From: a virus
Length of the DNA stretch: 64,000 nt
Virus record (IMG/VR): IMGVR_UViG_3300025096_000004
Span: 64,001-128,000 of that record
Reading direction: 5' to 3' (one strand)
Within the stretch, counting starts at the first letter, position 1; each line of letters opens with the position of its first letter. Both the position numbers and the translations under genes were made by a program. The notes under the pieces were generated by a model. It saw only the letters and a list, made by a program, of their open reading frames with translations, did no database searches and was not told where the DNA came from. Of the stretch, positions 14,698-61,094 are shown piece after piece.

Positions 14698-14706
14698 ACT
14701 ATTTAT
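14698..14706 (+). promoter_or_regulatory. ACTAnTTA intergenic motif (ACTATTTAT), putative late promoter element
   Basis: Lies in the gap before the gp6-like gene; identical to the copy at 14257. Confidence 0.45.
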
Positions 14707-44231: not shown

Positions 44232-44461
44232 TGCACGTATTAGATTTACATGGGACTCACCATGAAGATGTTGAGTCAAGGTGTCATCGTTTTATAAATG
44301 AACATTGGGGCAATCAACTTAAAATTGTTACGGGTCATTCTTCAACTATGCAATCAATTGTATGTAATGTTCTTAATCAATATAACCTACAATATATAGT
44401 TGGCGGAATCACAGGAAGCGAAGGATATATAAAAATATTTAAGGGAGGAATAAATGTTTAA
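44231..44461 (+). CDS. Stand-alone Smr-domain protein
   Basis: VLDLHG at the N-terminus and LKIVTGH.S; 76 aa. Confidence 0.7.
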   Translation: MHVLDLHGTHHEDVESRCHRFINEHWGNQLKIVTGHSSTMQSIVCNVLNQYNLQYIVGGITGSEGYIKIFKGGINV

Positions 44462-47400
44462 GATAGCTCACTTGGGTGATACCCACATAAGGAACTTGAA
44501 ATATCATCAGGAATACCGGATAATATTCAAGGAACTTTATAAAAAACTCAAAGCGGATAAGCCGGATTATATCGTTCACTGCGGCGATATAGCACATACT
44601 AAAACGCAGTTAAGTCCAGAGTATTTTCAATTAGCCTCCGAGTTCCTCTCGGAGCTTTCTGCTATTGCGCCATTGATTGTCATCCTTGGTAACCACGATG
44701 GCAATTTGAAAAACGAAAGTAGAGAAGACGCAATTACACCAATCGTTAATGCACTGGAGAATCCACAAATCACTCTTTTGAAGGATTCTGGAGAGTATTC
44801 ACCCGAAACCGGTCTAACATTTAATGTTTTGAGCGTTTTCGACAGAGAGAATTGGATCAAGCCGTCATCGGACCAATCAATCAACATAGCTCTATATCAT
44901 GGCTCAATTAGCGGTTGTTTGACCGATACCGGCTGGATTATGTCTCATGGCGAGGATGAAGCAACCATATTTAACGATCATGATTATGCTCTTCTCGGAG
45001 ACATTCACAAGCCTCAGTTTCTCGACTCCAAGCGCAAGGTTGGCTATTGTGGCTCAACCGTTCAGCAGAACTTCGGCGAAGACCAGAACAAGGGCTATAT
45101 GATATGGGAGATCAAAGATAAAGATAATCATGTGGTCTCGCACCATTCGCTCTACCATCCAAAGCCATTTATTACGGTGACTCTTAACACTGACGGGACT
45201 CTACCAGAAGCAGACGTTCCAAAGTATTGCAGACTTCGCTTGGTTACCCCACGAAACCTTCCAATTAGCCAACTTCGGAAAGCCTCTGACATGGCTAGGG
45301 TAAAGTGGCGTCCGTATAGTGTTGCGTTCTTAAACCGTGGAAATGCAACAACTTCTGGGCAAAACTCGGCATCTGCTAACATCACCGAGAATCTCCGAGA
45401 CCTGAAGGTTCAAGAGAAGCATATTCGAGAATACCTCAAGGACTACAACCTTGATGAGGTCATTATCCAAGAGGTGCTTGATCACAATCTCAAATATAAT
45501 CGACTGGCAACTGAGAACGAAGAGATAAGCCGCAATGTTGTATGGCGTGTAAAAGAGATAGAATGGGACAATCTATTCAACTATGGTGGAGGCAATAAAG
45601 TAAATTTTGACAAACTAAGGGGTCTCGTTGGAATTTTTGGAAAAAACTATTCCGGCAAGTCATCGATTATTGATTCGATCTTGTTCACAATGTTTAATTC
45701 AACTTCAAAGGGCGAGCGCAAAAACGTTCATATTATAAATCAAAATAAACAATCAGCAAAGTCTAAGATAAAGATCGAGATTGGTAATGAGTTAGTTGAA
45801 ATATCTCGTAACCTTAATAAGTACGAGAAGAGGTTAAAGGGAAAAGTTACGACAGAGGCAAAAACAGATTTAAACTTTCACAATCATACACTGGGCGAAT
45901 CTATTAATGGCACTTCTCGAAATGAAACTGATGCCAACATCCGCAAAAAGATAGGCACTTTGGATGACTTCCTTTTAACATCAATGGCTTCACAACTTGA
46001 TTCTCTTGCTTTTGTTAAAGAGGGTTCGACCAAACGGAAAGAGATACTTGCAAAGTTTTTGGATCTTGAACTGTTTGACAAGAAGTTTAAATCGGCGAAA
46101 AAAGATGCTTCTGATATGAAGGCTGTGCTTAAGAGGCTGCAAAACAAATCATGGGCTGTTGAGATTGAAAATTCGAAAGCGGCAATGGAACAAATCGGCG
46201 AAGAGGTTGAACAAAAGTCTGCAAAATGCAAAGAACTTAATTCAGTATTGACACGTCGACAGGCAGAGTTAATAGAATTAGAAAAACAAATAGATTCGGT
46301 TCCTGTGGAGCCAATTAACATTGCTGAGATTCAAGGAAAAATACAACAGTTTGAATTCGAGATCCAAGAGAATATAAGAAAGAAACTGGAATACAGAGGC
46401 CGCGCCAAACAAAATGAAGAGCTTGCTGATGAATTAGAAATAGAACTCAAAAACATACCACTTGATAAATTGCAAAAGTTAAAAGAGCGATCATTGGAAT
46501 TAAGTGAAGAAAGGAGAAAAAAACACTCAAAGCACAAATTGTTAAATTCTCAAATTGCAAATTTAGAAAAAAAGCTTGAAATGCTTGAGGGCCACAAATA
46601 TGATCCAAATTGTAAGTATTGTACCGATAACAAGTTTGTTAAGGATGCAAAGGCAGCGCTGGATAGTTTGCCCCAATTGAGAGAGAAAGAGCTAGAACTT
46701 GCTGAAATAGTACAAGGTTTGACCGAAAAACTATCAATTATGGACATATCTGAGATAGAAGAGCGAATTCAAAAATGTGACAAGATCCAAGTAAAAATTG
46801 ATAAATCAAAAGCAGATGCTAAACATCTTCGACATAAGGTTGAAAAGTGTGATCTCACAAACGAGCGCATTAAATCTGATCTTATAGATTTAAGACGTAA
46901 AGAGTCGCTGTATGAAGAGAACAAAGAAACAATTGAGAACCTTGGTACTTTATGCAAGGAACAGATATCTCTTAAAAAGATGATATATAAGAAGCAAGTT
47001 GATTTGGATAATTGCAATTCTAGATTGCAACTCCTTTATATTGATCAAGGCTCGGAGACCACAATATTAAAAAATCTAAAAGAGAACCAACAAGAGCTTG
47101 AAAAAATGGAAAGACAATGGACAGCTTATGATTTGTATATGCAATGCATGCACCCCAATGGTATTCCATATAATATTATTAAACAATCGCTTCCTCTGAT
47201 CAACGAAGAGATAGCAAAGGTATTGGCGAACATTGTCGAATTTGAAACATTTTTTGACAATACCGATGGCAAGCTCGACATTTATATCAAACATCCAAAT
47301 TATGATCCTCGACCTTTATCAATGGGATCGGGAGCAGAGAAGACAATCGCTGCAATGGCAATACGCCTAGCTCTGATTTCAATAACGAATTTACCAAAAT

Positions 47401-47597
47401 CCGAACTATTTATACTTGACGAACCAGCAACAGCTTTAGACCAAGAACATATGGAAGGTTTTATAAGGCTTTTGGATATGATTAAGAATCAATTCAAGAT
47501 CGTTATTCTGATCTCCCACTTGGACTCTCTTAAAGATGTTGTTGATATGACGATTGACATTCAAAAAAATGGCGACTATGCCAAAGTGAGGATTTAA
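44454..47597 (+). CDS. Fused Mre11/SbcD nuclease and Rad50/SbcC ATPase (gp47-gp46-like)
   Basis: Phosphoesterase motifs GDTH, GDIAH, GNHD, YHG and GDIH. Walker A GKNYSGKS, Zn-hook CKYC, signature SMGSGAEK, Walker B ILDEP, and H-loop ISH, all in one 1047-aa ORF. Confidence 0.93.
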   Translation: MFKIAHLGDTHIRNLKYHQEYRIIFKELYKKLKADKPDYIVHCGDIAHTKTQLSPEYFQLASEFLSELSAIAPLIVILGNHDGNLKNESREDAITPIVNALENPQITLLKDSGEYSPETGLTFNVLSVFDRENWIKPSSDQSINIALYHGSISGCLTDTGWIMSHGEDEATIFNDHDYALLGDIHKPQFLDSKRKVGYCGSTVQQNFGEDQNKGYMIWEIKDKDNHVVSHHSLYHPKPFITVTLNTDGTLPEADVPKYCRLRLVTPRNLPISQLRKASDMARVKWRPYSVAFLNRGNATTSGQNSASANITENLRDLKVQEKHIREYLKDYNLDEVIIQEVLDHNLKYNRLATENEEISRNVVWRVKEIEWDNLFNYGGGNKVNFDKLRGLVGIFGKNYSGKSSIIDSILFTMFNSTSKGERKNVHIINQNKQSAKSKIKIEIGNELVEISRNLNKYEKRLKGKVTTEAKTDLNFHNHTLGESINGTSRNETDANIRKKIGTLDDFLLTSMASQLDSLAFVKEGSTKRKEILAKFLDLELFDKKFKSAKKDASDMKAVLKRLQNKSWAVEIENSKAAMEQIGEEVEQKSAKCKELNSVLTRRQAELIELEKQIDSVPVEPINIAEIQGKIQQFEFEIQENIRKKLEYRGRAKQNEELADELEIELKNIPLDKLQKLKERSLELSEERRKKHSKHKLLNSQIANLEKKLEMLEGHKYDPNCKYCTDNKFVKDAKAALDSLPQLREKELELAEIVQGLTEKLSIMDISEIEERIQKCDKIQVKIDKSKADAKHLRHKVEKCDLTNERIKSDLIDLRRKESLYEENKETIENLGTLCKEQISLKKMIYKKQVDLDNCNSRLQLLYIDQGSETTILKNLKENQQELEKMERQWTAYDLYMQCMHPNGIPYNIIKQSLPLINEEIAKVLANIVEFETFFDNTDGKLDIYIKHPNYDPRPLSMGSGAEKTIAAMAIRLALISITNLPKSELFILDEPATALDQEHMEGFIRLLDMIKNQFKIVILISHLDSLKDVVDMTIDIQKNGDYAKVRI

Positions 47598-48257: not shown

Positions 48258-48424
48258 AAATCGATATTAAAACAATGATGTCTATCTTGGCAGCATCCGC
48301 CATCCTCGGCGGTTTTTATTATACAACTCAACATCGGCTTGATCTTCTTGAGGCAGACATTGCAGACCTTGAGACTGAAATTACGAAGGTCCGCAAAATT
48401 GCAAACAGGAAAAACAAACAATGA
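48254..48424 (+). CDS. 56-aa membrane-anchored coiled-coil protein (not in the ORF track)
   Basis: MKIDIKTMMSILAASAILGGFYYTTQHRLDLLEADIADLETEITKVRKIANRKNKQ*; overlaps both neighbours by 4 nt. Confidence 0.7.
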   Translation: MKIDIKTMMSILAASAILGGFYYTTQHRLDLLEADIADLETEITKVRKIANRKNKQ

Positions 48425-49233
48425 AATTATCAAAAGAGCAGCTTAACCATATTATCAAAGAAGAACTACAGGGACAGATTCAGGATATAAAAGCAAAATT
48501 GATGACTATCGATGCCTCGGGAGATCCGAATGCTAAGGGTTGGAAATATTGGAAATATGCAGGTAGCGGCCCAAGTGATTTCGAAATAGTAGATAGCTAT
48601 CTTAAAGCATCCGGTGAGCCCGGTCTTTCAAGCCCCGACACTGATCGAACCCCAAGCGAAGAGGAAGAACAGCAATGGGGGAATTCAATGGATGATGTAT
48701 TCGCGTCTATGCATACCAAATTGAACAAAGAATCCAAACAAATGAAATTAACAAAAGAACAACTTGCAAATATCATCAAAGATGAACTTGCGAAGACACT
48801 AAAAGAATATGGCCCATTTGGTTCTGCGATGGAACATTCTCTTTACGACAAGGTCAAATCAAACATTCAAAGGATTTCCCATGATGGATCCAAAGGTCTG
48901 GAAGTTCGGAAACATGTAACATTGTTGCAGAAACTGGAAGACAGCAGTTGGGACCCTGATGAATTCAACAACCCAGAGACAGCACACGGAGTGTGGACGG
49001 ATGTTTTTATGGACACCATGAATGATACCTATTGGGATGGCAAACAAGAAGTTGATATTAGATTTTCAACACCGGAAATAGAGGAAATGTGTCCTGACTG
49101 CGGCCCCGTCTGGGACCAAGTGGTGAGAGATAACGGAATGGACGGCCCCGGCTACGGCTCAGAACAAGAACCATGGTCCGACATCGTCGACGCTGTGAAA
49201 GAGAAGAACCCACAATATAAGGATTTTGAATAA
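48421..49233 (+). CDS. Leader-tagged putative internal head protein carrying two leader motifs (aa 1 and aa 108)
   Basis: MKLSKEQLNHIIKEE at the start and in-frame MKLTKEQLANIIKDE at 48742. Confidence 0.75.
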   Translation: MKLSKEQLNHIIKEELQGQIQDIKAKLMTIDASGDPNAKGWKYWKYAGSGPSDFEIVDSYLKASGEPGLSSPDTDRTPSEEEEQQWGNSMDDVFASMHTKLNKESKQMKLTKEQLANIIKDELAKTLKEYGPFGSAMEHSLYDKVKSNIQRISHDGSKGLEVRKHVTLLQKLEDSSWDPDEFNNPETAHGVWTDVFMDTMNDTYWDGKQEVDIRFSTPEIEEMCPDCGPVWDQVVRDNGMDGPGYGSEQEPWSDIVDAVKEKNPQYKDFE

Positions 49234-49490
49234 TGAAACTAACAAAAGAACAACTTGCGAAGATTATTAAAGAAGAGATAGGACAGATGGCAGAAGCTGG
49301 CCGCTATGGCCTTGGTTCACAAAGGCCCGATTCCTCTTTCAATGAATTGCCCGATGAACCAACAACAATGTCGGGAGCCGAATCAGCAAATGATTTGCGA
49401 ACAGCTATTGCACAGTTTGTCGCAGACAATCCACAACTCTCAGACCCCAAAGCAACAATCATGGCTATTATAGATGAGGCATTGAGATAA
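49233..49490 (+). CDS. Leader-tagged putative internal head protein
   Basis: Starts MKLTKEQLAKIIKEE; 85 aa. Confidence 0.75.
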   Translation: MKLTKEQLAKIIKEEIGQMAEAGRYGLGSQRPDSSFNELPDEPTTMSGAESANDLRTAIAQFVADNPQLSDPKATIMAIIDEALR

Positions 49491-49535
49491 GGTGAAGCTA
49501 ACAAAAGAACAACTTGCGAAGATTATTAAAGAAGA
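49239..49535 (+). repeat. 38-nt perfect direct repeat (49239-49276 and 49498-49535) encoding the leader LTKEQLAKIIKE
   Basis: CTAACAAAAGAACAACTTGCGAAGATTATTAAAGAAGA occurs twice, with looser copies at 48421 and 48742. Confidence 0.95.
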
Positions 49536-49905
49536 ATATGCCAATGTTAAAGAATCGTGGCAACAAAAGATGTTCGGCGGAGAAGAGGAAATAATTCCAC
49601 CATCCGAACCCGCCCCCGCTTCTAAAGAATCTGAGAGTTGGAAGACTCTCGAAAGACTTGTGAGAGCTACCAACAAAGAATTTCCTGAATTGAATTTGGG
49701 CTTCCCTCTGCTTCGTAAATTTTACAAACTACACCGAGCCCATGGCCGCCAAGATATAGGATGGAGATTGCCAAAGATCACACAAATCATTCCAATGGAA
49801 GGTGGCCGATACGACATAGTATTCGCCGATGGCACCCAAGAAGTGTATCAAGATCGCTTTACTGACAGGGGCCACCGTGGAAGCGCTTTCCGAAGTACTT
49901 ATTAG
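49492..49905 (+). CDS. Leader-tagged putative internal head protein (GTG start)
   Basis: Starts MKLTKEQLAKIIKEE; 137 aa. Confidence 0.75.
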   Translation: MKLTKEQLAKIIKEEYANVKESWQQKMFGGEEEIIPPSEPAPASKESESWKTLERLVRATNKEFPELNLGFPLLRKFYKLHRAHGRQDIGWRLPKITQIIPMEGGRYDIVFADGTQEVYQDRFTDRGHRGSAFRSTY

Positions 49906-49952
49906 ATGAGCTTCGAGGTCATAAAAGAAAAAAATCTTTTTGAAAAAATATG

Positions 49953-49981
49953 TTGCACAAATCGTATAACCATGTTATATT
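49953..49981 (+). promoter_or_regulatory. Sigma-70 promoter with extended -10 (TTGCAC-N17-TATATT)
   Basis: TTGCAC at 49953-49958, TG at 49973-49974, TATATT at 49976-49981. The 17-nt block TGTTATATTATTATTAT is identical to the primase promoter; SD GAGGAGG precedes 50023. Confidence 0.7.
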
Positions 49982-50022
49982 ATTATTATTACTTAAATTG
50001 TCTAATGTATAGAGGAGGATAG

Positions 50023-50448
50023 ATGAAAAGTTTTGTTTTAGCGTTCTTATTGGTTTACTCGCCACCTGCCAACGCAGAAGAGCCGGTGTTCACCCCACTT
50101 AAAAAAGGTCAAAAAGCCCCTTTCGATGGGAGGTTGTTTAATAACGCAGCCGTTTCTAAATTCATTATAGAAGACAGGCTAAAGGTCGAACAGTGTAATG
50201 TTCAAATCGAATATGAAGTTGGAAAAGCAAATGCCGCCTCAAAATATCAATTTGATCTCCATTCAGCAAAGTGTGAAGCTGACGACCACAGACTTCAAGA
50301 TATGATAGCCATTCGAGACGACGAGATAAAGTTTTTGAGAAAGTCATATGAGCCCCCGAAACACCAATGGTGGCTCGCCGGTGGATTTGTGGTTGGAGCA
50401 GCCTCCGCCATCGGCATCATGTATGCTGTTGCTCCGGGACTACGATGA
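50023..50448 (+). CDS. Periplasmic coiled-coil protein with signal peptide and C-terminal TM (possible lysis accessory)
   Basis: Signal-peptide-like MKSFVLAFLLVYSPPANA, a helical core with two Cys, and C-terminal WWLAGGFVVGAASAIGIMYAV. Confidence 0.7.
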   Translation: MKSFVLAFLLVYSPPANAEEPVFTPLKKGQKAPFDGRLFNNAAVSKFIIEDRLKVEQCNVQIEYEVGKANAASKYQFDLHSAKCEADDHRLQDMIAIRDDEIKFLRKSYEPPKHQWWLAGGFVVGAASAIGIMYAVAPGLR

Positions 50449-50822
50449 AGGAAAAAGATCCCAACTATGTTGCAAAGGTGGAACAAGCCATAGCGAAGAA
50501 ATATGGCGAAGAAACAATTCAACACCCAAAGAAAGATTGGACGAATGAAAAAGAAAAGGAATACCTTGAGCAACAAAAACAATTACACTTCAAAGATATT
50601 CAAGAAGAAGATATTGACAAAGTTCAAGTAAATGGAGTTTTTGTTCCCAAAAAACTAATTAAGAAGAACTCTAATCGTTCTTGTCCCGTTTGTAATATAT
50701 ATTCATTCAAGTCAAACGATGATGTGTATATGTCAAAGTTTGAGTGTTGTGAAAAGTGTTATATCCAATGGGTCGAAGGTCGAGAAGAACGTTGGAAAAC
50801 CGGATGGAGACCAAATAACTAA
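50445..50822 (+). CDS. Hypothetical protein with C-terminal CxxC...CCxxC Zn-binding-like motif
   Basis: Start reassigned to the ATG at 50445 (ATGA overlap); CPVC and CCEKC motifs. Confidence 0.75.
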   Translation: MKEKDPNYVAKVEQAIAKKYGEETIQHPKKDWTNEKEKEYLEQQKQLHFKDIQEEDIDKVQVNGVFVPKKLIKKNSNRSCPVCNIYSFKSNDDVYMSKFECCEKCYIQWVEGREERWKTGWRPNN

Positions 50823-51295
50823 TGGCAACAAAAGTAACAGCATCAACTTTAAAAGTATCTGTTAAAGAGGAAATCACTCTTAACGGCAAGAAACATGAAT
50901 ACCGCCATGAGCAGTCCATTGCTGATATCAATATGATTTCACAGCGAATTGTGAGAGTTCCGTACACTGGTACTGAAATAATTTTATCATTTGGAAGTGC
51001 GATTGGTGCCGGCACATATATTGCAGGAGACGTAAAGTATATTCGCGTAACAAATTTAGATGATGCTAATTTTGTTAAATTGGGACTACTTGATTCCGGC
51101 GCTGGTGATCGAGCTTATTTTAAACTTGAAAAGGGCGATACTATGATTTTTCACAATACAAAATTAGAGGCAAAAGCAGATACTAGCGGTGCATGGGTTG
51201 CTTTTGCGGATATTGAATCAATTAACGCGATAGCAGATTCCACCCTCGCCATCCCCGTCGATATAGAAGTTTTCGTTGCATCAAGTCAAAGTTAA
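50822..51295 (+). CDS. Small beta-rich virion protein (possible decoration/jelly-roll fold)
   Basis: YIRVTNLD...FKLEKGDTMIF resembles the pattern in 61114 and 61520. Confidence 0.55.
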   Translation: MATKVTASTLKVSVKEEITLNGKKHEYRHEQSIADINMISQRIVRVPYTGTEIILSFGSAIGAGTYIAGDVKYIRVTNLDDANFVKLGLLDSGAGDRAYFKLEKGDTMIFHNTKLEAKADTSGAWVAFADIESINAIADSTLAIPVDIEVFVASSQS

Positions 51296-51309
51296 GGAGA
51301 AACTAAATA

Positions 51310-51861
51310 ATGGCTAATTCAGAAATGTTAAAAGTAGTACAAGGACTGGCACAAGCCGTCTCCGATATTAAAGCAAACGGTCACGATGAACGTTACGCTT
51401 ATGATGGCGAAGCTCGCACAGTTGGTCTCAAAAGAGAAGAGGGAGACATTATTCTTGATAAAAGAGTTAATGATGGTTTTACTGTTAAATTTGTGGGCCA
51501 TATGCTTTGCATTCACTATCAAGCTGACATTATGTTAAAAGATATTTATGGTGGCAAGTTTGAAAATGAAATGCAACTTATGATCAATCAAGTTAAAAAG
51601 GCAATTCAAAAAGAATATAAAAAGGTTACTGGCGATTCAGTCACTTTAACTGGCGTTGACGAACCATATATTTTGGCTTCTTCAGTATCAAGGGTTCGCT
51701 CCTTTGTCCAAGCTCATCAATATTTTAAAATTTCTGGAATCAAAGAAAACGAGTATACTGGTGGCTCCGAAGATCGAAAAATTGAAGACTCATGGCGAAA
51801 ATTTTTAGACCTTGATAATAAAAATAAGCGACCACCCAACGACACAAGACCAAAATCATGA
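51310..51861 (+). CDS. Hypothetical protein upstream of terminase
   Basis: 183-aa ORF with SD AAGGAG. Confidence 0.8.
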   Translation: MANSEMLKVVQGLAQAVSDIKANGHDERYAYDGEARTVGLKREEGDIILDKRVNDGFTVKFVGHMLCIHYQADIMLKDIYGGKFENEMQLMINQVKKAIQKEYKKVTGDSVTLTGVDEPYILASSVSRVRSFVQAHQYFKISGIKENEYTGGSEDRKIEDSWRKFLDLDNKNKRPPNDTRPKS

Positions 51862-51870
51862 TGAGAGATT

Positions 51871-53454
51871 ATGGCCTATCAACCTTCAAAACAAGAAATT
51901 GTAAAAGAGATTCTTAAATCAGGCAAAGATCCTGTTTATTTTATTAATAATTATTGTCGCATCTCGCACCCTATGAGGGGCTTGATCTCTTTTAAGACAT
52001 ATCCTTATCAAGATGATTTGCTTAATGATTTTAATGATTACCGCTTCAGCATTATTTTAAAAGCCCGCCAGCTAGGAATTTCAACCATTACTGCTGCTTA
52101 TTGCGTTTGGATGATGCTGTTTCATAGAGATAAGAATGTTCTTGTAATGGCAACCAAATTCGGAACAGCATCAAACTTGGTTAAAAAAGTTAAGGCGATG
52201 ATGAAGAACCTTCCTCCTTGGATTCGCATTTCCAACATTAAGGTGGATAATCGATCTTCATTCGAGCTTCACAATGGGTCTCAAATTAAAGCAACATCAA
52301 CATCCGGTGATGCGGGTCGTTCCGAAGCGCTCTCTCTGTTAGTGATTGATGAGGCTGCCCATGTGGACGGGCTAGATGAATTATGGACTGGTCTTTATCC
52401 TACACTATCAACAGGCGGCAGGTGTATTGCCCTATCAACACCCAATGGGGTCGGTAATTGGTTCCACAAGACTTATGTCGACGCTGATAATATGGAAAAC
52501 GATTTTCATCCAATCAACTTGGCGTGGGACGTACATCCTGAACGCGATAGGGTTTGGTTTGAAAAAGAGACAAAAAATATGTCTCGGAGACAAATTGCTC
52601 AAGAGTTGGAGTGTAACTTTAACACATCAGGAGATACAGTGATCCATCCCGATGATTTAGCTAGATTGAACGCCGCAACTAAAGAGCCAAATTATAGAGT
52701 CGGCCACGACAGAAATTTTTGGCTTTGGGAGAAGTTCGCCGAAAACTTTACTTATCTTATGGTCGCCGACGTAGCCCGAGGTGATGGTTCAGACTCTTCA
52801 ACCTTTCATATCTTGAAGCTAGAAACAATGGAGGTGGTGGCTGAATATCAAGGAAAACCCAGTCTTGATCTATATTCAAATATATTGTTTCAAGCTGGTC
52901 ATGAATATGGAAAGTGTTTGCTAGTGGTTGAAAACAATGGAATAGGCATTTCAATTCTCGAGAAGCTTATAGATTTAGGATATCCAAATTTATATTATTC
53001 CATAAAAGGGACTCACGAGTTTGTTGATTCGATACAGGGCGAAGTAAACAATAGAGCCCTTCCGGGGTTCACAACCTCAACCAAGACCCGCCCATTGATT
53101 GTGGCAAAATTAGAAGAGTTCATAAGGAATGGACTAATTACTTTATATTCTAGTAGGTTGTTTCATGAACTTAAGACATTTATTTGGCATAACGGTAAAC
53201 CACAAGCGATGCGTTCCTATCATGATGATTTGGTGATGTCATTGGCGATAGCTTGTTGGGTTAGGGATACAGCCCTACAGACAAGCCAAAAAGATGTTCA
53301 ATACAAAAAAGCAATGCTTGACGGTATGTTCATGAAAACTACACAAATGAGTACCACAATTGAAGGAATGGAAGGGCATAAAAAATCTTTTGATGAGAAA
53401 TACGAAGAACAACAGAAGCAAGCAACTGATTTTGCTTGGATTTTTAAAGGATAA
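51871..53454 (+). CDS. terL: Terminase large subunit (T4 gp17-like)
   Basis: Walker A KARQLGIS, Walker B LVIDEAA, coupling motif STPNG, QELEC.F, and nuclease motifs ADVARG..D, VENN and HDDLVM. Confidence 0.96.
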   Translation: MAYQPSKQEIVKEILKSGKDPVYFINNYCRISHPMRGLISFKTYPYQDDLLNDFNDYRFSIILKARQLGISTITAAYCVWMMLFHRDKNVLVMATKFGTASNLVKKVKAMMKNLPPWIRISNIKVDNRSSFELHNGSQIKATSTSGDAGRSEALSLLVIDEAAHVDGLDELWTGLYPTLSTGGRCIALSTPNGVGNWFHKTYVDADNMENDFHPINLAWDVHPERDRVWFEKETKNMSRRQIAQELECNFNTSGDTVIHPDDLARLNAATKEPNYRVGHDRNFWLWEKFAENFTYLMVADVARGDGSDSSTFHILKLETMEVVAEYQGKPSLDLYSNILFQAGHEYGKCLLVVENNGIGISILEKLIDLGYPNLYYSIKGTHEFVDSIQGEVNNRALPGFTTSTKTRPLIVAKLEEFIRNGLITLYSSRLFHELKTFIWHNGKPQAMRSYHDDLVMSLAIACWVRDTALQTSQKDVQYKKAMLDGMFMKTTQMSTTIEGMEGHKKSFDEKYEEQQKQATDFAWIFKG

Positions 53455-53458
53455 ATAA

Positions 53459-55411
53459 ATGGCGAAAAATAACAAAAACCCATATAATAATGAATCAGAT
53501 TTATTCAGATCACTGACTAGATTGTTTTCTGGGCCCATCTTGAACAGAAGAACCCAAACTGGCCGACAGTTGCGTCGGAGACATTTGGATGTCTATTCTA
53601 AATGGTTTAAGTCTGCTTCAGGAAGACAGTTCAAGAAAGCAGAATACAACCCAATGAATATAACTTCTGCCAACATGATTTCAAATCGAAATAGATCAGA
53701 ACGATATGTTGACTTTGACCAAATGGAGTATATGCCAGAGATTGCATCGTCATTGGATATTTACGCAGATGAGATGACAACTCATTCTGATTTGCAACCA
53801 ATGCTCAAGATTAAATGCCCAAACGAAGAAATTAAATCAATTCTTCAGGCTCTTTATCATAATGTGCTTAACGTTGAATATAATTTATTTGGTTGGTCTC
53901 GTACAATGTGTAAATATGGAGATTTGTTTTTATATATGGAACTCGATGAATCTCTTGGAGTCAAGAATGTTATCGGACTCCCACAACAAGAAGTCGAGCG
54001 CTTAGAGGGCGAGGATATGTCAAATCCGAACTATGTCCAATTCCAATGGAACTCCGGCGGCCTTACTCTTGAAAACTGGCAAGTAGCTCATTTTCGAGTT
54101 TTGGGACATGATAAACATGCTCCATATGGAACATCAGTTCTTGAAGGCGCCCGCCGAATCTGGCGACAATTAACTCTTTTAGAAGATGCAATGATGGCTT
54201 ATCGTATTGTACGCTCTCCAGAGCGCCGTGTGTTTTATATTGACGTTGGTGCCATTGCTCCTCAAGATGTTGAACAATATATGCAAAAGGTTATGACCCA
54301 AATGAAGCGTCATCAGGTTGTTGATCCAACAACCGGCAAGATTGATCTTCGCTATAACCCGCTTTCAATTGAGGAAGATTACTATATTCCGGTTCGTGGC
54401 ACTTCAAATACCAAGATTGAAAACCTCCAAGGTGGCCAATTCACTGGAACTGTCGAGGATGTAAAATATTTAAGAGATAAATTATTTGCTGCTCTCAAAG
54501 TGCCCCAATCTTACTTGACTATGGGCGAAGGCGCCACCGAAGACAAGACCACCCTTGCTCAAAAGGACGTTCGCTTTGCCAGAACCATCCAACGCCTCCA
54601 GCGCGTTGTGACCTCGGAGCTTGAAAAGATAGGAATTATTCACTTATATACTCTTGGGTTCCGAGGTGATGATCTTTTATCATTTAAGCTTGGATTGAAC
54701 AACCCTTCTAAAATTGCAGAACTTCAGGAACTTGAACATTGGAAACAGAAATTTGATGCCGCCGGAGCCGCGACCGAAGGGTTCTTTTCAAAGCGCTGGA
54801 TTGCCGAAAATATGCTTGGCATTTCTGAAGATGAATTTCTTAGAAACCAAAGGGAGATGTTCTTTGATAAGAAGTTTATGGCAAGCCTTGAAGCTTCCGC
54901 CGAAGGTGCCGCCGCAGAAGGCGGTGAAGGTGGAGGATTGGGCGAACTCGGCGATCTGGGGGGTGAAGGTGGAGAAGAAGGAGACCTCGGCGACCTCGGC
55001 GATTTGGGCGATGAAGGGGAAGAGGCTGGTGGAGAAGAAGCCACAGCCGCCGATGAAAAGGAATCGCCCTTGCTGGCTGAACCGCCGGGAAAAAGAGACG
55101 ATAGTCAATATGGCATCCGCAACAAAGGGGGAACCTCAAAGAGAATTAAGAGCGAAGCAGGTATAACCAGAGACGCCATCAGGGCCACTCCAAGAACAAT
55201 TAATCCGGGCTGGAAGGGAGACCATGGTATGAATCCCCTTGCCAATATGTCGAAAAGTTATGTCACTTCCGGACCAATGGGAATTATGTTTGAGCAAAAA
55301 ACTGTTGACAATGATTTGTTGGAAGAACAAAAACTATTTAGTGTAAATAATGAAATAGAACACCTTTTAAAAAGTCTAAAGGAGAAGAAAAAATATGAAG
55401 ATGAAACATAA
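53459..55411 (+). CDS. gp20: Portal vertex protein (T4 gp20-like) with long acidic Gly-rich C-terminal tail
   Basis: PEIASSLDIYADE, LEDAMMAYRIVRSPERRVFYIDVG, EDYYIP.RG and DVKYLRDKLFAALKVP. Confidence 0.96.
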   Translation: MAKNNKNPYNNESDLFRSLTRLFSGPILNRRTQTGRQLRRRHLDVYSKWFKSASGRQFKKAEYNPMNITSANMISNRNRSERYVDFDQMEYMPEIASSLDIYADEMTTHSDLQPMLKIKCPNEEIKSILQALYHNVLNVEYNLFGWSRTMCKYGDLFLYMELDESLGVKNVIGLPQQEVERLEGEDMSNPNYVQFQWNSGGLTLENWQVAHFRVLGHDKHAPYGTSVLEGARRIWRQLTLLEDAMMAYRIVRSPERRVFYIDVGAIAPQDVEQYMQKVMTQMKRHQVVDPTTGKIDLRYNPLSIEEDYYIPVRGTSNTKIENLQGGQFTGTVEDVKYLRDKLFAALKVPQSYLTMGEGATEDKTTLAQKDVRFARTIQRLQRVVTSELEKIGIIHLYTLGFRGDDLLSFKLGLNNPSKIAELQELEHWKQKFDAAGAATEGFFSKRWIAENMLGISEDEFLRNQREMFFDKKFMASLEASAEGAAAEGGEGGGLGELGDLGGEGGEEGDLGDLGDLGDEGEEAGGEEATAADEKESPLLAEPPGKRDDSQYGIRNKGGTSKRIKSEAGITRDAIRATPRTINPGWKGDHGMNPLANMSKSYVTSGPMGIMFEQKTVDNDLLEEQKLFSVNNEIEHLLKSLKEKKKYEDET

Positions 55412-56210
55412 TAAGAAAAGAAATACCGCTTTTCTTTACGAGTCTTTGGTTAAAGAGTTAACAAAAGCAATAGTCAGAAAACAACATGTTAGAAAAAAAC
55501 AAGTTGTTGAGATTATAAAAAAATATTTTAATAATAACTCTGTGCTTAAAGAGGAATTAGATATTTATAATTCTTTAATTGCAACCGGCTCTTTAAATAA
55601 AGAATATAGTTTGCGACTTATGCATGAAAGTAAAAAGGACTATGATTTGCTTGACAAAAAGAAAATCTTTAACATGCAAACAAGCTTGATTAAAGAGATT
55701 AATGAATCACTATCCAATCAAGTATTCGCAAACTTTATTTCAAACTATCGTCAACTTGCTAATATTGGACAATTTTTTGATTCTAACAATTTGAATGCAA
55801 AACAAAGAATTTTGGTTGAATCAAAGGTTGTTGGAATGTTGATAAATAAGAAGAAAGAGACCAAAGATATGAAGCATATTGATAATTTAACTTACAACAC
55901 TTTTGTGAATAAATTTAACAGAACCTATGAGTCATCGCTGAGAAAAGAGCAGAAAGATTTGTTAACAAATTACATTACGTCTTTTTCTGACAACGGCCTT
56001 GGGCTGAAGTCTTTTCTTAATGAGGAGATTGGACGTCTAAAGGTGGTTCTGAATGCTGCTGCCTCTAAATCAAATATTGATCGGCAACTTGCCGAGAACA
56101 CAAAAAAAGTTATAATAAAATTGGAATCATTTTCTAAAAAGCAAATAACTGAACAACTGGTTAGAGATATATTTTATATTCAAGACCTAGCTTATGAGGT
56201 GAATAAGTAA
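55395..56210 (+). CDS. Hypothetical helical head-cluster protein
   Basis: 271-aa ORF directly after the portal (KHNKKRNTAFLYESL). Confidence 0.8.
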   Translation: MKMKHNKKRNTAFLYESLVKELTKAIVRKQHVRKKQVVEIIKKYFNNNSVLKEELDIYNSLIATGSLNKEYSLRLMHESKKDYDLLDKKKIFNMQTSLIKEINESLSNQVFANFISNYRQLANIGQFFDSNNLNAKQRILVESKVVGMLINKKKETKDMKHIDNLTYNTFVNKFNRTYESSLRKEQKDLLTNYITSFSDNGLGLKSFLNEEIGRLKVVLNAAASKSNIDRQLAENTKKVIIKLESFSKKQITEQLVRDIFYIQDLAYEVNK

Positions 56211-56812
56211 TGACCATCAATGTTAAAATTACCAATGATCAGCCCGAAGAGGATTCCAATAAGGTGAACGTCAAGATCAAAAAATCTGATGAAATACAGG
56301 TTGAGATCGTAAAAGAAGACCCTCCAATATCGTTTAAGTTAAATGCTCGCAAAGCAATGAATGGAGATATTATGATTTTTGATCATGCTGATATCGACAT
56401 CATCATTTTAACAGAAAAGAAAAAAGTTGTCGCCTTTGCAAAAGAAATCATGAGCGATATTGTTTATGGTGCTGAATCGAGATTATTTGAATATTTGCGC
56501 AAACGAGGTATCGTTGCTTTTGACTCAATACAGGGCGGCAATGTTTATGGATCCCTTGAGGCGAAAATACATGAATCAACAGAGTTCGACCCAATTAAGA
56601 TGACATTACTTAATGTATCTAAATGGATGGATGACGAACGCCCCTATTTTGAATCATTAAAGGCTCATGATGAAATGATGGACGATGCAATTTTGGAACC
56701 AGATGTGGAAAATTCAACAGAACTTGGCGAAGTTCCCCATGAAGAAGAGAAGGGTTCGATTTTGCAGCATAATTTGTTTGCACCATACTTGTACGGGAGA
56801 TACACATACTAA
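56210..56812 (+). CDS. Hypothetical head-cluster protein
   Basis: 200-aa acidic ORF with TAATG coupling on both sides. Confidence 0.8.
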   Translation: MTINVKITNDQPEEDSNKVNVKIKKSDEIQVEIVKEDPPISFKLNARKAMNGDIMIFDHADIDIIILTEKKKVVAFAKEIMSDIVYGAESRLFEYLRKRGIVAFDSIQGGNVYGSLEAKIHESTEFDPIKMTLLNVSKWMDDERPYFESLKAHDEMMDDAILEPDVENSTELGEVPHEEEKGSILQHNLFAPYLYGRYTY

Positions 56813-57156
56813 TGAAAATAACACAAAAACAACTTAGAAAGATTATAAAAGAGGAAGTTGAAGAGACCATGAAAGAATATGGTTCTGATAAAAGAAGTAT
56901 TCCAAAGCAAGCTTGGTTAAAAGCCATTTCTGATGCCAACATGACGGATCAAAACCACCGCCCAATAGGCGAACAGACGTTAAATAATTATGGATATTAT
57001 TATCAGCCAAATCGCGACATTGGAGACTCTCGGTGGACCGGCGCCTTTTATAAACCTTACGATGCAATGGCGGATAGCGGAGGTATTTATGCTGAAAATT
57101 GGGCCGACAAGGCCATTAAAGCAGCAATGGAAATGTCTGGCGATGTTGTCGAATAA
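56812..57156 (+). CDS. Leader-tagged putative internal head protein
   Basis: Starts MKITQKQLRKIIKEE. Confidence 0.75.
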   Translation: MKITQKQLRKIIKEEVEETMKEYGSDKRSIPKQAWLKAISDANMTDQNHRPIGEQTLNNYGYYYQPNRDIGDSRWTGAFYKPYDAMADSGGIYAENWADKAIKAAMEMSGDVVE

Positions 57157-57172
57157 ACAATAAGAGGTACTA

Positions 57173-57490
57173 ATGGAATTAATTTGGTTTATGTTAGCCG
57201 CTTTTGGCTTAACACAAATTCTTGTATACGGGAAGATTTTTGATAACTATAGGCCAGCCAAAGAACAATACAAAGGATGGGGAGAAGTATTTCATTGTCC
57301 AATGTGTATGGGCTTTTGGACTGGTGTATTTTTATTTTTCATAAATGGTTTCACAGAACTATTTACATTTGATTATAATTTAATTAATATGTTGATATGT
57401 GGATGCACGTCCTCGGGCACGTCTTATATACTTAATATGTTATTTGGAGATTATGGTCTTAATCTAAACATTGGAGATAAAGATGAATAA
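57173..57490 (+). CDS. Small membrane protein with CxxC (DUF1360-like)
   Basis: Three hydrophobic segments and the motif FHCPMCMGFW. Confidence 0.6.
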   Translation: MELIWFMLAAFGLTQILVYGKIFDNYRPAKEQYKGWGEVFHCPMCMGFWTGVFLFFINGFTELFTFDYNLINMLICGCTSSGTSYILNMLFGDYGLNLNIGDKDE

Positions 57491-57548
57491 AGTATGGACA
57501 CAAAAGTGGATGCTTCAACCAGTAAGGCATTGTTGTAAGGGTAGCTGA
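57483..57548 (+). CDS. 21-aa small ORF MNKVWTQKWMLQPVRHCCKGS (not in the ORF track)
   Basis: ATG overlaps the end of the upstream gene with GGAG upstream; TGA lies 3 nt before a terminator-like hairpin. Confidence 0.45.
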   Translation: MNKVWTQKWMLQPVRHCCKGS

Positions 57549-57551
57549 CTC

Positions 57552-57580
57552 AAGCGGGTAGCGCCCGCTTTTTATTTTTA
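57552..57580 (+). terminator. Intrinsic terminator-like hairpin
   Basis: AAGCGGG-TAGCG-CCCGCTT 7-bp stem (57552-57570) followed by TTTATTTTT. Confidence 0.75.
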
Positions 57581-57592
57581 AGGAATTAACAG

Positions 57593-57949
57593 ATGAAATT
57601 GACAAAAGCCAGACTTAAACAGATAATTTTAGAAGAAATTAACGAAATGCGTGTCACGGATATTGCCGGCGATGATGAGGATCGTGCAATTGATGCACAC
57701 CGCCGCGCCAAGAGAGCCCGTGGCGAATATCCCCGCCGACCAACTGGTGGATATGAAGATACTCGATGCCCTGCCGAAATTGAACAAGCTCGCAAGGAAG
57801 GAATGGTCGAGGCCACAAGAAATATTTTAGAAATGTTCCCCGGCGGCGGCCTTATGGTAGATCAAAATACATATAATGCTATTCAAGAAATGGCCCCTGA
57901 ACTGCTTGACAGAATATCGGTCACCCGATCACGACGAAGAGAACAATAA
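57593..57949 (+). CDS. Leader-tagged putative internal head protein
   Basis: Starts MKLTKARLKQIILEE. Confidence 0.75.
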   Translation: MKLTKARLKQIILEEINEMRVTDIAGDDEDRAIDAHRRAKRARGEYPRRPTGGYEDTRCPAEIEQARKEGMVEATRNILEMFPGGGLMVDQNTYNAIQEMAPELLDRISVTRSRRREQ

Positions 57950-58560
57950 TGTCAAAAAAGCTTTTAACAGAATATTTTGAATTGTGTCCCGATGGTGCAT
58001 GTCTCGATCTTTTGAACGAAAGAGAAAAGAAAGAGGTCATGGAAGGTGGTATGTATTTAACAGGCCGCATTCAGTCCGCTGATGTTAAAAACGGCAACGG
58101 ACGAAAGTATCCTGAAAAAGTCTTAAGACGAGAAATGGAGAATTATATGAACGTTGTTCGAGACAATAGGGCTACCGGAGAATTGGATCATCCTGATGAT
58201 TCTGTTATTAATTTAAAGAATGTATCTCACATGATTACAGACATCTGGTGGAAGGGAAAAGATGTAATGGGCAAAATCAAAGTTCTTAATACACCATCCG
58301 GCAGAATATTAAAAGATCTTGTAAATGCTGGTGTAAAAATTGGCATTTCTTCTAGAGGTCTTGGTTCTGTCAAAGAACAGATGGGGGAATCGATTGTGGA
58401 AGATGATTTTCAACTAATCTGTTTTGATATTGTATCAGAACCATCCACACCAAATGCTTATGTTTTCCCCAAATCAGATCAGCAGCGCTTCAAGATGGCT
58501 GTGCGCGAAGGAAAAGAAAACAGTATCAACAATTTATTTAAAAAAATATTGAGGGATTAA
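57949..58560 (+). CDS. gp21: Prohead core protease (T4 gp21-like)
   Basis: N.NGR.YP, GELDHP, VSH, TPSG.IL and GISSRG.GS, with DIVSEPS.P.A at the end. Confidence 0.96.
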   Translation: MSKKLLTEYFELCPDGACLDLLNEREKKEVMEGGMYLTGRIQSADVKNGNGRKYPEKVLRREMENYMNVVRDNRATGELDHPDDSVINLKNVSHMITDIWWKGKDVMGKIKVLNTPSGRILKDLVNAGVKIGISSRGLGSVKEQMGESIVEDDFQLICFDIVSEPSTPNAYVFPKSDQQRFKMAVREGKENSINNLFKKILRD

Positions 58561-58563
58561 AAA

Positions 58564-59562
58564 ATGAGCTATTCAAGTGATAAAAAACATAAGTTAATGT
58601 TTGAGAGTTGGAGAAAATTTGTCTCCGAAGAGGCAGATCCAAAGAAAATGTCTGGAGAGGATTTTCCAATGAAACTTGGCGATGTGGGTTCAAAATATAC
58701 ACCCCAACAGGCTAAAAAAATTGCAGTAGGTGGACTTAAGGATGGAGATAAATCAGACGATATTATTAATGCCAAGCCCGGCGGAGGTCCAGTTTCTAAA
58801 CTGAAGCCCTCTCAATCATCAATGAATATCGGAAAAGCTGTTGCTTTTGCAATAGCAGCGATTCTTGAAAACGAACCTTTTCCAACAGGTCCCGGGGGCG
58901 ATTTGGGAGCAATTATAACCAGTGATAATCATATTATGGATGGCCACCATCGTTGGATCGCTAGTGGAATGATCGACCCATCTGCTAAAGTTCAAGGATT
59001 TATAGTAGATTATCCCGCGAAACAATTGATTTCTGTTCTAAATGTTCTTACTCTTCACTTTACAAAAAGTCCCAAAGGAAAACCCGGAGGGGGCAGTTTT
59101 AAAGATTTTAATGAAAAGGCAATCGGAGCGGTATTACAAAAATATGCTGCTGATGGGGTGTGGTCCGCTGGTGATGACCCTGCCATGGTTATGAGCGCTT
59201 TGGAACAATTTACAGGACAAACTGGCGAAGCAGCCGTCCCCCTTGCTGCAAAGAAAATGGCCAAAAACGTAAGTCAATTGACACTTTCTGTTCCTTCTGG
59301 TTTTCCACAGAGAGAAGATATGCCTATCATCAGCGCCAAAAAAGGACACTTGGCCTTGGCAGTCAAATTGTTAAACTCCGGCGCTATTGATGTAAATCCA
59401 CAATATGCTGGAGACACCGGTGAGCCCGGCGGAGTCGTTCCTGATTCTGGGGGAACATATGAAAAAGGCTCCCAAGCTGGCGCTGATTCCGATCAAGCCG
59501 AAAGAGAAAGGAAAATGAGAGACCTTGAAGAAAACAGAAAACGACGAAGAAGAAAAAAATGA
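58564..59562 (+). CDS. ParB/sulfiredoxin-fold protein with type-II leader
   Basis: LKPSQ...AIITSDNHIMDGHHRW; the N-terminus is shared with 59559. Confidence 0.75.
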   Translation: MSYSSDKKHKLMFESWRKFVSEEADPKKMSGEDFPMKLGDVGSKYTPQQAKKIAVGGLKDGDKSDDIINAKPGGGPVSKLKPSQSSMNIGKAVAFAIAAILENEPFPTGPGGDLGAIITSDNHIMDGHHRWIASGMIDPSAKVQGFIVDYPAKQLISVLNVLTLHFTKSPKGKPGGGSFKDFNEKAIGAVLQKYAADGVWSAGDDPAMVMSALEQFTGQTGEAAVPLAAKKMAKNVSQLTLSVPSGFPQREDMPIISAKKGHLALAVKLLNSGAIDVNPQYAGDTGEPGGVVPDSGGTYEKGSQAGADSDQAERERKMRDLEENRKRRRRKK

Positions 59563-59593
59563 GCTATTCAAGTGATAAAAAACATAAGTTAAT
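58564..59593 (+). repeat. 35-nt perfect direct repeat at gene starts (58564-58598 and 59559-59593)
   Basis: ATGAGCTATTCAAGTGATAAAAAACATAAGTTAAT occurs twice. Confidence 0.95.
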
Positions 59594-60458
59594 TTTTGAG
59601 AATTGGAGACGGTTTCTAAAAGAAGACGCCATTGACGATTTCATTAAGGGAAGTGGAAAGGGATTGCATGACTATACCGCTATGCTAAAGAGCATCGCCG
59701 GCGACCCTGAATTCCGTAAATTAGCACTTTCGGGCCGTGACGACAGCGCTGGCCCAGCCGATGAATCAATCCAAGTGCATGGCGGTAAGCCGGTACCAGC
59801 CATCGATTTGGTGCCAACTCAATTTGACATTGATACGGAAAAAAGTCTTGGAGATCAAATGGTTAACCGCTTCAACGGAACTGAGTATGCCTTAGAAGAG
59901 GGCTCTCCAATTCTTATGGGCTCTAAGGAGGGAAGAATTCCTGTATTGGTGTTCGACAATAAATATATTTTAGATGGTCACCACCGATGGTCGCAGGTGG
60001 TTATGACAAACCCCGGCGGCATCATGGCAGTTGATAATTTGTCTGCCCCAGCTTTTGGCTCAGGCCAAGAAGGCGCAGAACTTGCTTTAAAGGCAACACA
60101 GTTGGCCATCGCCGGAATCGCCGGAAATGTTGTCACAAATGACACTGATGTTAATCTTTTAGAAGTAGATGTTGCCACTTTGGAAAAATATGTTTTAAGT
60201 AGAATAAGTGATGAAGTTGTGCAAATGCTTTTTAATGCCGAAAAGATACCCAAAGCGGATAAAAGATTGGCTGCCAAAATGTACGGCAAGAATCTTATGT
60301 TGGTCCAAAGAGCACAAAAGGGTAAATTCCAAAGAAAACTTGGCATGCCTCAAGCCGCCGATTCCGGAACTAACCAAGCTAAAGTCAACAAGGCCCTTGA
60401 ACAAGGTCTTGTCAATTTTGATTCCCCTGAGAGAGATGATATAAAGGGCAAAAAATGA
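59559..60458 (+). CDS. ParB/sulfiredoxin-fold protein with type-II leader (paralogue)
   Basis: LVPTQ...VLVFDNKYILDGHHRW. Confidence 0.75.
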   Translation: MSYSSDKKHKLIFENWRRFLKEDAIDDFIKGSGKGLHDYTAMLKSIAGDPEFRKLALSGRDDSAGPADESIQVHGGKPVPAIDLVPTQFDIDTEKSLGDQMVNRFNGTEYALEEGSPILMGSKEGRIPVLVFDNKYILDGHHRWSQVVMTNPGGIMAVDNLSAPAFGSGQEGAELALKATQLAIAGIAGNVVTNDTDVNLLEVDVATLEKYVLSRISDEVVQMLFNAEKIPKADKRLAAKMYGKNLMLVQRAQKGKFQRKLGMPQAADSGTNQAKVNKALEQGLVNFDSPERDDIKGKK

Positions 60459-60856
60459 ACAAAAATGAATTAAAAAAGATTTTGAAACCTCTGATTAAAC
60501 AGTGCATCAAGGAGGTGATTTTCGAAGACGGCACTCTTTCGAATATCATATCGGAGGTTGCAAAGGGCCTCGGATCTACAACTGTTATTTCCGAGGCTCA
60601 ACCAACTATACAAAAACCAATGCAGCTTGAGTCTGATAGTACAGCAGCAAAGCGTCTAGAAAGGAAAAAACGTATGCTTGATTCTATTGGTAAAGATGCC
60701 TATAACGGCGTTGACTTGTTTGAGGGAACAACCCCAACTACCCAGCCCAAAGAACGGGGCCAAGGTCCCCTTGCAGGAGTAGACCCAAGAGACCCCGGTG
60801 TAGATATATCTAACTTTGGCTCTTTAGGGCACTGGAAGAAGCTGGCAGGAAACTAA
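60455..60856 (+). CDS. Hypothetical head-cluster protein with several I-x-E sites
   Basis: MNKNELKKILKPLIKQCIKEVIFE...IISE; 133 aa. Confidence 0.75.
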   Translation: MNKNELKKILKPLIKQCIKEVIFEDGTLSNIISEVAKGLGSTTVISEAQPTIQKPMQLESDSTAAKRLERKKRMLDSIGKDAYNGVDLFEGTTPTTQPKERGQGPLAGVDPRDPGVDISNFGSLGHWKKLAGN

Positions 60857-60857
60857 A

Positions 60858-61094
60858 ATGAGAAAACGAATACCAAAGAAAAAAAACAATTTAACAATTT
60901 ATCCTCGAAGAAATGAATCTCCAGAAAGACTTGTAAAGAGGTTTAATAAAAAAGTTAAAAAAATGGGAATAATCGATGAAGCAAAAGACCGACGCTATTA
61001 TACAAAACCTTCTGAAAAAAAACGATTGGCGAGAAAACGCGCCATCGCAAGAAGAAAAAAGGAAGAGGCAAAAGCCAAGAGAAGAACTAATTAA
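60858..61094 (+). CDS. rpsU: Phage-encoded ribosomal protein bS21 homologue
   Basis: NES.ERLVKRFNKKVKKMGIIDEAKDRRYYTKPSEKKR matches the bS21 pattern (NE..E.ALRRFK....K.G...E...R..Y.KPS..R). Confidence 0.88.
   Translation: MRKRIPKKKNNLTIYPRRNESPERLVKRFNKKVKKMGIIDEAKDRRYYTKPSEKKRLARKRAIARRKKEEAKAKRRTN
61086..61094 (+). promoter_or_regulatory. ACTAnTTA motif (ACTAATTAA) overlapping the bS21 stop, putative late promoter element
   Basis: Same consensus as the other copies; precedes 61114. Confidence 0.4.

Follow-up and report, generated by a model that had tools for sequence, protein, structure and literature searches.

A 22-residue N-terminal leader shared by dissimilar proteins of an uncultured T4-type phage is a candidate prohead-targeting propeptide

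The DNA analyzed here is a 64,000-nucleotide stretch (bases 64001 to 128000) of the 191,495-bp IMG/VR virus record IMGVR_UViG_3300025096_000004, which is rated 100% complete. We refer to this whole stretch as the window, and positions are window positions unless the genome is named. Within it, several small proteins that are dissimilar over most of their length start with the same leader of 22 residues. We propose that this leader is a propeptide that would direct proteins to the prohead in the manner of the capsid-targeting sequence (CTS) of phage T4, a reading to which we assign a probability of about two in three. Judged from its sequence, the source phage is a distant T4-type myovirus from an uncultured marine lineage; its best cultured relatives, as measured by the portal protein, are Flavobacterium phage vB_FspM_immuto (42.5% identity; here referred to as immuto) and Microcystis phage Mel-JY01. 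Of 125 open reading frames (ORFs) of at least 150 amino acids (aa), 116 lie on the plus strand.

The type-1 leader and its cargos

A first-pass annotation of the window had listed six leader N-termini, all of which are present: 48421 MKLSKEQLNHIIKEE, 48742 MKLTKEQLANIIKDE, 49233 and 49492 MKLTKEQLAKIIKEE, 56812 MKITQKQLRKIIKEE, and 57593 MKLTKARLKQIILEE. The hydrophobic-x-Glu sites that it had placed downstream in five copies (LKE, MAE, VKE, MKE, and INE) were likewise confirmed, with the 48421 copy lacking such a site and having I-Q-D in its place. The sequences that follow the leader, here called cargos, proved to be as dissimilar as had been claimed: BLASTP at 1e-3 left all cargos of this genome as singletons, with the one exception of the module-2 sequence (from 48742), which pairs with the 270-aa ORF that contains it. 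In a six-frame search of the 191,495 bp, 11 copies of the leader were counted, solely in the coding frame and at ORF or module starts, five of them beyond the window (genome positions 27179, 28357, 29171, 41049, and 170843). By a rough estimate, the chance expectation of the strict leader pattern is far below one per window. Three features had been overlooked in the first-pass annotation, namely, an I-K-E site at leader residues 12 to 14, the extent of the conserved unit (22 residues), and a second leader type in the same genome. The leader described so far is therefore referred to as type 1.

All type-1 genes of the window are on the plus strand. A 270-aa two-module protein (48421..49233) has its first leader at 48421-48486 and its first cargo up to 48741; a second in-frame leader (48742-48807), which ends in L-K-E, then opens module 2, whose cargo extends to 49230. 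It is followed by an 85-aa protein without a Pfam family (49233..49490), in which the leader ends in M-A-E at residues 19 to 21 (to 49295), and by a 137-aa protein with a GTG start (49492..49905), in which it ends in V-K-E at residues 19 to 21 (to 49554). The leader DNAs of these two neighbors are identical over 36 nucleotides (bases 7 to 42; window 49233-49274 and 49492-49533), which points to a recent duplication or gene conversion within a tandem array. The remaining two genes encode a 114-aa protein (56812..57156) located between the portal and head protease genes, with M-K-E at residues 20 to 22 (to 56877), and a 118-aa protein (57593..57949) located directly upstream of the protease gene, with I-N-E at residues 16 to 18 (to 57646). 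A word-index search with the 114-aa protein returned three homologues and was hence useless as a census of the leader.

The leader was therefore studied in relatives, for which 80 IMG/VR loci were taken by using the head protease as an anchor (68 to 95% identity). These loci contain 129 leader ORFs, 128 of which are on the same strand as the protease gene, and provided a first set of 123 unique leader proteins. A wider set of 382 unique tagged proteins includes loci among the matches listed in an IMG/VR pattern scan, in which the type-1 tag was frequent, being found in at least 120 stretches. The consensus derived from the 123 proteins is MK[LI]T[KN]E[QT]LK[QR]IIKEELxxV[LM]xE. Its conserved positions carry 1.4 to 4 bits of information up to residue 22, while from residue 23 onward the value is below 0.6 bit, and the same collapse at residue 23 is seen in the 382-protein set. 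The leader thus has two sites of the type cut by T4 gp21, I-K-E at residues 12 to 14 and [LM]-x-E at residues 20 to 22. I12-x-E14 is present in 372 of the 382 proteins; a second [LIVMF]-x-E with its Glu at residues 16 to 27, most commonly 22, is present in 312 of them, compared with 21% of 12-residue windows inside the cargos, and is most often followed by G, A, or S. With a search pattern that did not fix the acidic positions, the counts of Glu and Asp were 371 and 5 (position 14), 355 and 3 (position 15), and 175 and 7 (position 22), against a background E:D ratio of 1.5.

The 123 leader DNAs are all distinct, and the invariant Leu8 is written with six codons; a conserved peptide encoded by divergent DNA indicates selection at the peptide level. 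AlphaFold2 modeled the 48742 module (11-sequence alignment) as a helix at residues 5 to 23, a linker of low confidence, and a compact domain modeled with confidence at residues 31 to 133 (predicted local distance difference test [pLDDT] scores of 81 to 91). A single-sequence model of the 49492 protein, poor overall (pLDDT of 54), has a helix at residues 5 to 28 followed by a disordered stretch at residues 29 to 46.

The 382 tagged proteins, which range from 46 to 422 aa (median, 120 aa), fall into 258 cargo clusters by BLASTP. No Pfam family was found for 146 of 150 cluster representatives, and the four families that were found are AAA_33, GNAT, DUF6745, and HTH_32. Unrelated folds are thus represented among the cargos, as illustrated by the kinase-like AAA_33, GNAT, and HTH domains. 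In the genome studied here, the cargo at genome position 170843 is a DUF3293 protein. The confidently modeled cargo of the 48742 module had no structural match in PDB or BFVD; accordingly, no function was assigned to it, and it lends no support to an anti-defense role. A search of the ESM Atlas with the 57593 protein brought up nothing but clusters without names, below 0.8.

In 596 Gb of prokaryote genomes, the leader DNA pattern was all but absent, with only two matches. One of these (L229) lies in a 15.9-kb contig, PBSV01000031.1, of a metagenome-assembled genome labeled "Opitutia bacterium," where an 8-kb stretch holds two type-1 genes and three genes with the second leader type; this is almost certainly a mis-binned phage contig of the lineage described here. 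A tblastn search of 50,697 phage records with a 24-residue leader gave nothing at E values up to 10, the query probably being too short. The cultured relatives carry diverged versions of the leader, with immuto having N-termini of the MKKSQLRQIIKEAL and MKKSQIVKAVQEVLEE types; leader-like N-termini are encoded by its genes at L206 positions 3049, 4562, 9005, 10006, 14729, and 16615.

The head protease, leader swaps, and polyproteins

The enzyme presumed to remove the leaders is encoded at 57949..58560 (plus strand), where the first-pass annotation had placed a gp21-like protease. This assignment is borne out by a match to Peptidase_S77 (PF03420; E value of 8.7e-36; 123.7 bits versus a cutoff of 27), a match to phrog_207 (E value of 1.6e-60), and 36% identity to T4 gp21 (E value of 3e-29), with GELDHP and ISSRGLGS aligning with the GELNHP and VSSRGLGS of gp21, so that the His and Ser blocks are kept. 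The genome also encodes a candidate scaffold protein (genome 133275-134483) and a gp23-type major capsid protein (genome 134504-136435). In an alignment with T4 gp23, the counterparts of its maturation site, FLTE|AEIGG, are LLRE|ASGMG in this capsid protein, IVSE|AN in that of immuto, and LISE|AN in that of Mel-JY01, which suggests that the hydrophobic-x-Glu specificity of the protease has probably been retained.

The gene order in T4 is 20-67-68-21-22-23, and the leader genes at 56812 and 57593 sit in the gp67 and gp68 slots of this order, respectively. In about 34 of 74 relatives, a leader of type 1 or type 2 heads the protein encoded just before the protease, and the cargo varies. Of 12 large IMG/VR records with the tag, 9 encode an S77 protease, including both 100%-complete genomes, and the three that do not are 44 to 62% complete. 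The tagged contigs of medium size number 22, all of them pieces of large genomes (11 to 54% complete), and S77 is encoded on 10.

The second leader type has the 14-residue consensus MKLLLENWRKYLxE, and eight proteins of this genome start with an MKLIMENWRxFLxE-like sequence. It ends in [LIVM]-x-E, the terminal residue being Glu in 59 cases and Asp in none. An AAA_33 domain, already seen with type 1, is also found among type-2 cargos. Furthermore, three orthologous cargos, in each case encoded immediately before the protease gene, are preceded by type 1 in one of two phages and by type 2 in the other (L047/L049, 75% identity; L046/L068, 50%; L062/L040, 75%), and in these pairs the similarity starts within a few residues past the Glu of the leader. 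Such swaps, with a junction after the Glu, imply that the two tags are functional equivalents and that the modules join at the predicted cleavage site. A simple family of diverged paralogues was ruled out by the unrelated cargo domain families and by the occurrence of two different leaders on the same cargo.

The cargo of one swap pair (L062:9504-9998 and L040:9501-9998), directly before the protease gene, contains two H-x-T motifs (HHMTIV and PHVTIA) and has a weak tRNA_lig_CPD match that is below the cutoff (E value of 0.0046); from these motifs, it is a candidate 2H phosphoesterase. A PDB sequence search with it gave no match. Some phage enzymes which break down cyclic-nucleotide signals belong to the 2H phosphoesterase fold class.

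The two-module ORF at 48421 has counterparts among the relatives. Its module-2 cargo is found elsewhere by itself behind a single leader (P0004, P0006, and P0008), and it also forms the final module of proteins in which two or three leaders, internal ones included, are fully conserved (P0005, P0009, and P0010). With leaders in internal positions, their role cannot be one that requires a start codon. As far as can be judged from their sequences, the internal leaders fit with a protease that would separate the modules.

With regard to expression, the T4 late promoter TATAAATA was rejected as the element in use, as none of its 7 plus-strand copies is sensibly placed. A different motif, ACTATTTA, is strand biased over the genome (CTATTTA has 37 plus-strand and 4 minus-strand copies) and lies 27 to 46 nucleotides upstream of the baseplate wedge, adaptor, and sheath genes (for example, at 14258-14264 and 14699-14705). 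It is also found 12 to 42 nucleotides upstream of four isolated leader genes (genome positions 41049, 170843, 47110, and 190163, with the motif at 41017, 170801, 47079, and 190151, respectively). The placement of this motif makes it a candidate late promoter, distinct from TATAAATA of T4.

Several other features of the region and genome were noted. Directly after the protease gene, two type-2 tandem paralogues are encoded on the plus strand, a 332-aa protein (MSYSSDKKHKLMFESWRKFVSE; 58564..59562) without a Pfam family and a 299-aa protein (MSYSSDKKHKLIFENWRRFLKE; 59559..60458). They share the leader MSYSSDKKHKL[MI]FE[SN]WR[KR]F[VL]xE and a DGHHRW motif which, judged by eye, has a ParB/Srx-like look; they had no Pfam match at E values up to 0.1, and only phrog_2859, of unknown function, was found. 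The next protein (133 aa; 60455-60856) starts with MNKNELKKILKPLIKQCIKEVIFED and has I-K-E and I-F-E sites. A similar N-terminus, YQKIVQEVVREVIAE, is present at the same place after the protease in Mel-JY01, and it is possible, from this resemblance, that the N-terminus of the 133-aa protein is another propeptide. In addition, three large proteins (736, 757, and 493 aa; genome positions 30359, 33837, and 37161, all outside the window) start with basic sequences that resemble one another, MKIRIRKKKVPFLNEA, MIKIKIRKNPVLQEA, and MRICMKVKIKRKMDELF, of which two end in L-x-E-A; by their sequences, these may represent a third leader class.

Upstream of the 56812 gene, the plus strand encodes the putative large terminase subunit (51871..53454; assigned by position, by an N-terminus similar to those of the terminases annotated in immuto and Mel-JY01, and by synteny with L206 and L207) and a T4 gp20-like portal protein (53459..55411; tblastn match to the gp20-like protein of immuto, with 42.5% identity). 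The portal gene has weaker tblastn matches to annotated portals of other T4-type phages, such as gene 20 of Rhodothermus phage RM378. Baseplate wedge, head-tail adaptor, and tail sheath proteins are also encoded by the genome. Between the leader genes at 56812 and 57593 lies the gene for a 105-aa membrane-type protein with a CPxC motif (57173-57490; phrog_781); in about half of the relatives, the gene nearest that of the protease encodes a homologue of this protein. A 78-aa homologue of ribosomal protein bS21 (60858-61094; phrog_21469; E value of 1.8e-9) is encoded inside the head module and occupies the same place in Mel-JY01. Further upstream, a 1,047-aa ORF (44454-47597) reads as an Mre11/SbcD-type nuclease N-terminus (GDTH) joined to a Rad50/SbcC-type P-loop and coiled coil. 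In T4, these functions are divided between gp47 and gp46.

Explanations for the shared leaders

The mechanism that we favor would begin with the 22-residue N-terminal amphipathic helix tethering freshly synthesized proteins to the scaffolding core as the prohead assembles, after which the shell would close around the core-bound proteins. The S77 protease would then cut after Glu14 (I-K-E), after Glu22 ([LM]-x-E), or after both, freeing the cargo inside the capsid while the leader fragments escape. The 14-residue type-2 tag would do the same job and be interchangeable with type 1. Tandem leader-cargo genes could fuse, and the resulting polyproteins would be cut back to single cargos by the protease. 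We infer core binding, cleavage, virion retention, and ejection of the tagged proteins into the host; that the cargos act there against host defenses, or indeed are ejected at all, is speculation.

Capsid targeting by a leader that is read by a gp21-like protease had been proposed in the first-pass annotation, and much of what we found speaks for it: the boundary at [LM]-x-E, the preference for Glu over Asp, the co-occurrence with S77, the gp67/gp68 position, the swapped leader types, the leaders within polyproteins, and the candidate late promoter shared with tail genes. A number of observations weigh on the other side. The cargos are mostly acidic, unlike the basic internal proteins of T4, with a median isoelectric point of 5.1 versus 6.6 for the genome (62% are below 5.5, and 23% are above 8). 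About 19 tagged proteins per genome are many for a T4-sized head. The second site is missing from 18% of type-1 leaders, the 48421 copy included, and the preference for Glu over Asp is in part what any helix would show. The type-2 gene at genome position 38682 is preceded by a sigma-70-like TTGACA-N17-TATATT, which suggests early expression, and the type-2 cargos include NUDIX, guanylate kinase, cytidylyltransferase-like, and HAD-like proteins, for which action in the cytoplasm is equally possible. Finally, the link with S77 may merely reflect one clade, and neither a virion proteome nor an N-terminal protein sequence of this phage or its relatives, immuto and Mel-JY01 included, was found in the searched literature.

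The cargo enzymes just mentioned, together with the AAA_33 kinase, would also suit leaders that are uncleaved docking helices tethering proteins to an assembly other than the prohead, such as a nucleotide-metabolism or replication complex, a chaperonin, or a membrane site. Consistent with this, half of the tagged genes are far from the head module, one has the sigma-70-like early promoter, and the cargos are acidic. However, a docking helix does not account for conservation that ends exactly at a hydrophobic-x-Glu site or for Glu:Asp ratios of at least 25:1 at three type-1 positions (74:1 at position 14) and of 59:0 at the end of type 2. Nor does it account for tagged genes in the gp67/gp68 slots beside the protease gene in about 46% of relatives, or for the exchange of type 1 and type 2 on cargos at the slot before it. 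In addition, polyproteins with internal leaders are sensible only if they are cut, and the motif that precedes tail genes also stands before four isolated tagged genes. On balance, we consider docking unlikely.

Still less probable, in our view, is that the shared 5' end serves mainly as a recombination handle for the shuffling of cargo cassettes, with the peptide having no targeting role. Exchange at the leader-cargo junction is indeed evident from the fusions and leader swaps, relatives have arrays of three to five tandem leader genes, and the adjacent leaders at 49233 and 49492 share their 36 identical nucleotides. What is conserved, however, is the peptide and not the DNA, for which all 123 sequences are distinct and the Leu and Ile codons are near background entropy, and two unrelated peptides with the same ending substitute for each other. 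Moreover, a role in recombination could coexist with targeting and would not take its place. An mRNA-level or translation-initiation element, in the form of an A-rich, unstructured 5' coding region that raises expression, is highly improbable: codons 2 to 7 and 13 to 14 do favor AAA, GAA, ACA, and CAA above the genome average, but the hydrophobic positions are amino acid invariant with free codon choice, fully conserved leaders are found inside long ORFs far from their starts, and the leader pattern has helical periodicity.

Relation to known systems and implications

The closest parallel to the proposed prohead-targeting propeptide is the CTS of T4, reportedly characterized by Mullaney and Black in 1996. 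We see no similarity between the tags described here and what we take to be the T4 CTS sequence. The CTS is present on the internal proteins IPI, IPII, and IPIII and on Alt and is removed by gp21 (PMC9026906, PMC3012670, PMC5694885), which has the consensus L/I-X-E (PMC9026906). The first 10 residues of IPIII suffice for packaging (PMC3012670, PMC9026906, PMC5694885), and Asp at the cleavage position stops processing but not targeting (PMC9026906). As in T4, a short N-terminal peptide that ends in hydrophobic-x-Glu is common to otherwise unrelated proteins, an S77 protease is encoded, and the cargo set differs between related phages. The suggestion in the first-pass annotation that the system is an independent invention does not hold in kind, since T-even internal proteins that share only the CTS are already established (PMC3012670, PMC9026906), and reviews have proposed the CTS as a general loading route for varied proteins in T4-like phages (PMC3012670, PMC9026906, PMC5694885).

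The differences from T4 are nevertheless considerable. The tags are 22 (type 1) or 14 (type 2) residues long, compared with 10 for the CTS; there are two candidate cleavage sites and at least two interchangeable tag classes; and where T4 has a handful of cargos, a genome of this kind has about 19 tagged proteins, the lineage as a whole accounting for at least 258 cargo clusters. The occurrence of natural polyproteins that contain internal tags is a further difference, as is the charge of the cargos, IPI to IPIII of T4 being small, basic, and packed with the DNA (PMC9026906), and the present system is known from sequence alone. The 56812 and 57593 proteins resemble T4 gp67 and gp68, which are cut by gp21 at L/I-X-E sites (PMC9026906), in being small and encoded between portal and protease, and gp67 itself contains DLIKEEK. 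However, they have no detectable sequence homology to gp67 or gp68 and no Pfam or PHROG family, and since the cargo at this slot differs among relatives, they are probably not conserved core proteins.

A second comparison is with phiKZ-like giant phages (201phi2-1, phiKZ, and SPN3US), in which many head proteins are likewise cut after Glu at a short motif and propeptides hold redundant sites. There, the propeptides of ejection or inner-body proteins are removed by S80 and not S77 proteases, are mostly >100 residues long, and have an S/A/G-X-E motif, and no single portable tag is found on hundreds of cargo families. The SPN3US paralogues gp53 and gp54 have an identical 15-residue N-terminus, which the authors compared with the T4 CTS (PMC5694885). 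In the literature that we searched, there was no description of the tag system reported here and no paper linking the CTS with marine phages or cyanophages. Taken together, the present system matches the logic of the T4 CTS, and what is new is the length and sequence of the tag, the number of sites, the swappable classes, the scale, the charge of the cargos, and the polyproteins.

A broader proposition, which we put forward tentatively, is that the tags form an interchangeable address code of at least two classes by which a marine T4-like lineage that is common worldwide loads hundreds of proteins into the capsid for delivery with the DNA, among them enzymes (kinase-like, NUDIX, GNAT, and the candidate 2H phosphoesterase) and multicargo polyproteins cut by the head protease. 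If this is correct, the injected proteome of uncultured phages would be readable from sequence, which by itself would mark the capsid-borne proteins, the first to reach the host, of an abundant uncultured marine phage lineage, and the tagged cargos would be a natural place to seek new counter-defense and host-takeover functions. Foreign proteins could also be packaged by means of the tag, which, with its 22 residues and defined cleavage site, would provide a second tool for this purpose in phage heads. The capsid-targeting principle of T4 would then be old, widely used, and expandable to about 10% of a phage's genes, and it would exist in interchangeable versions and tolerate polyprotein precursors.

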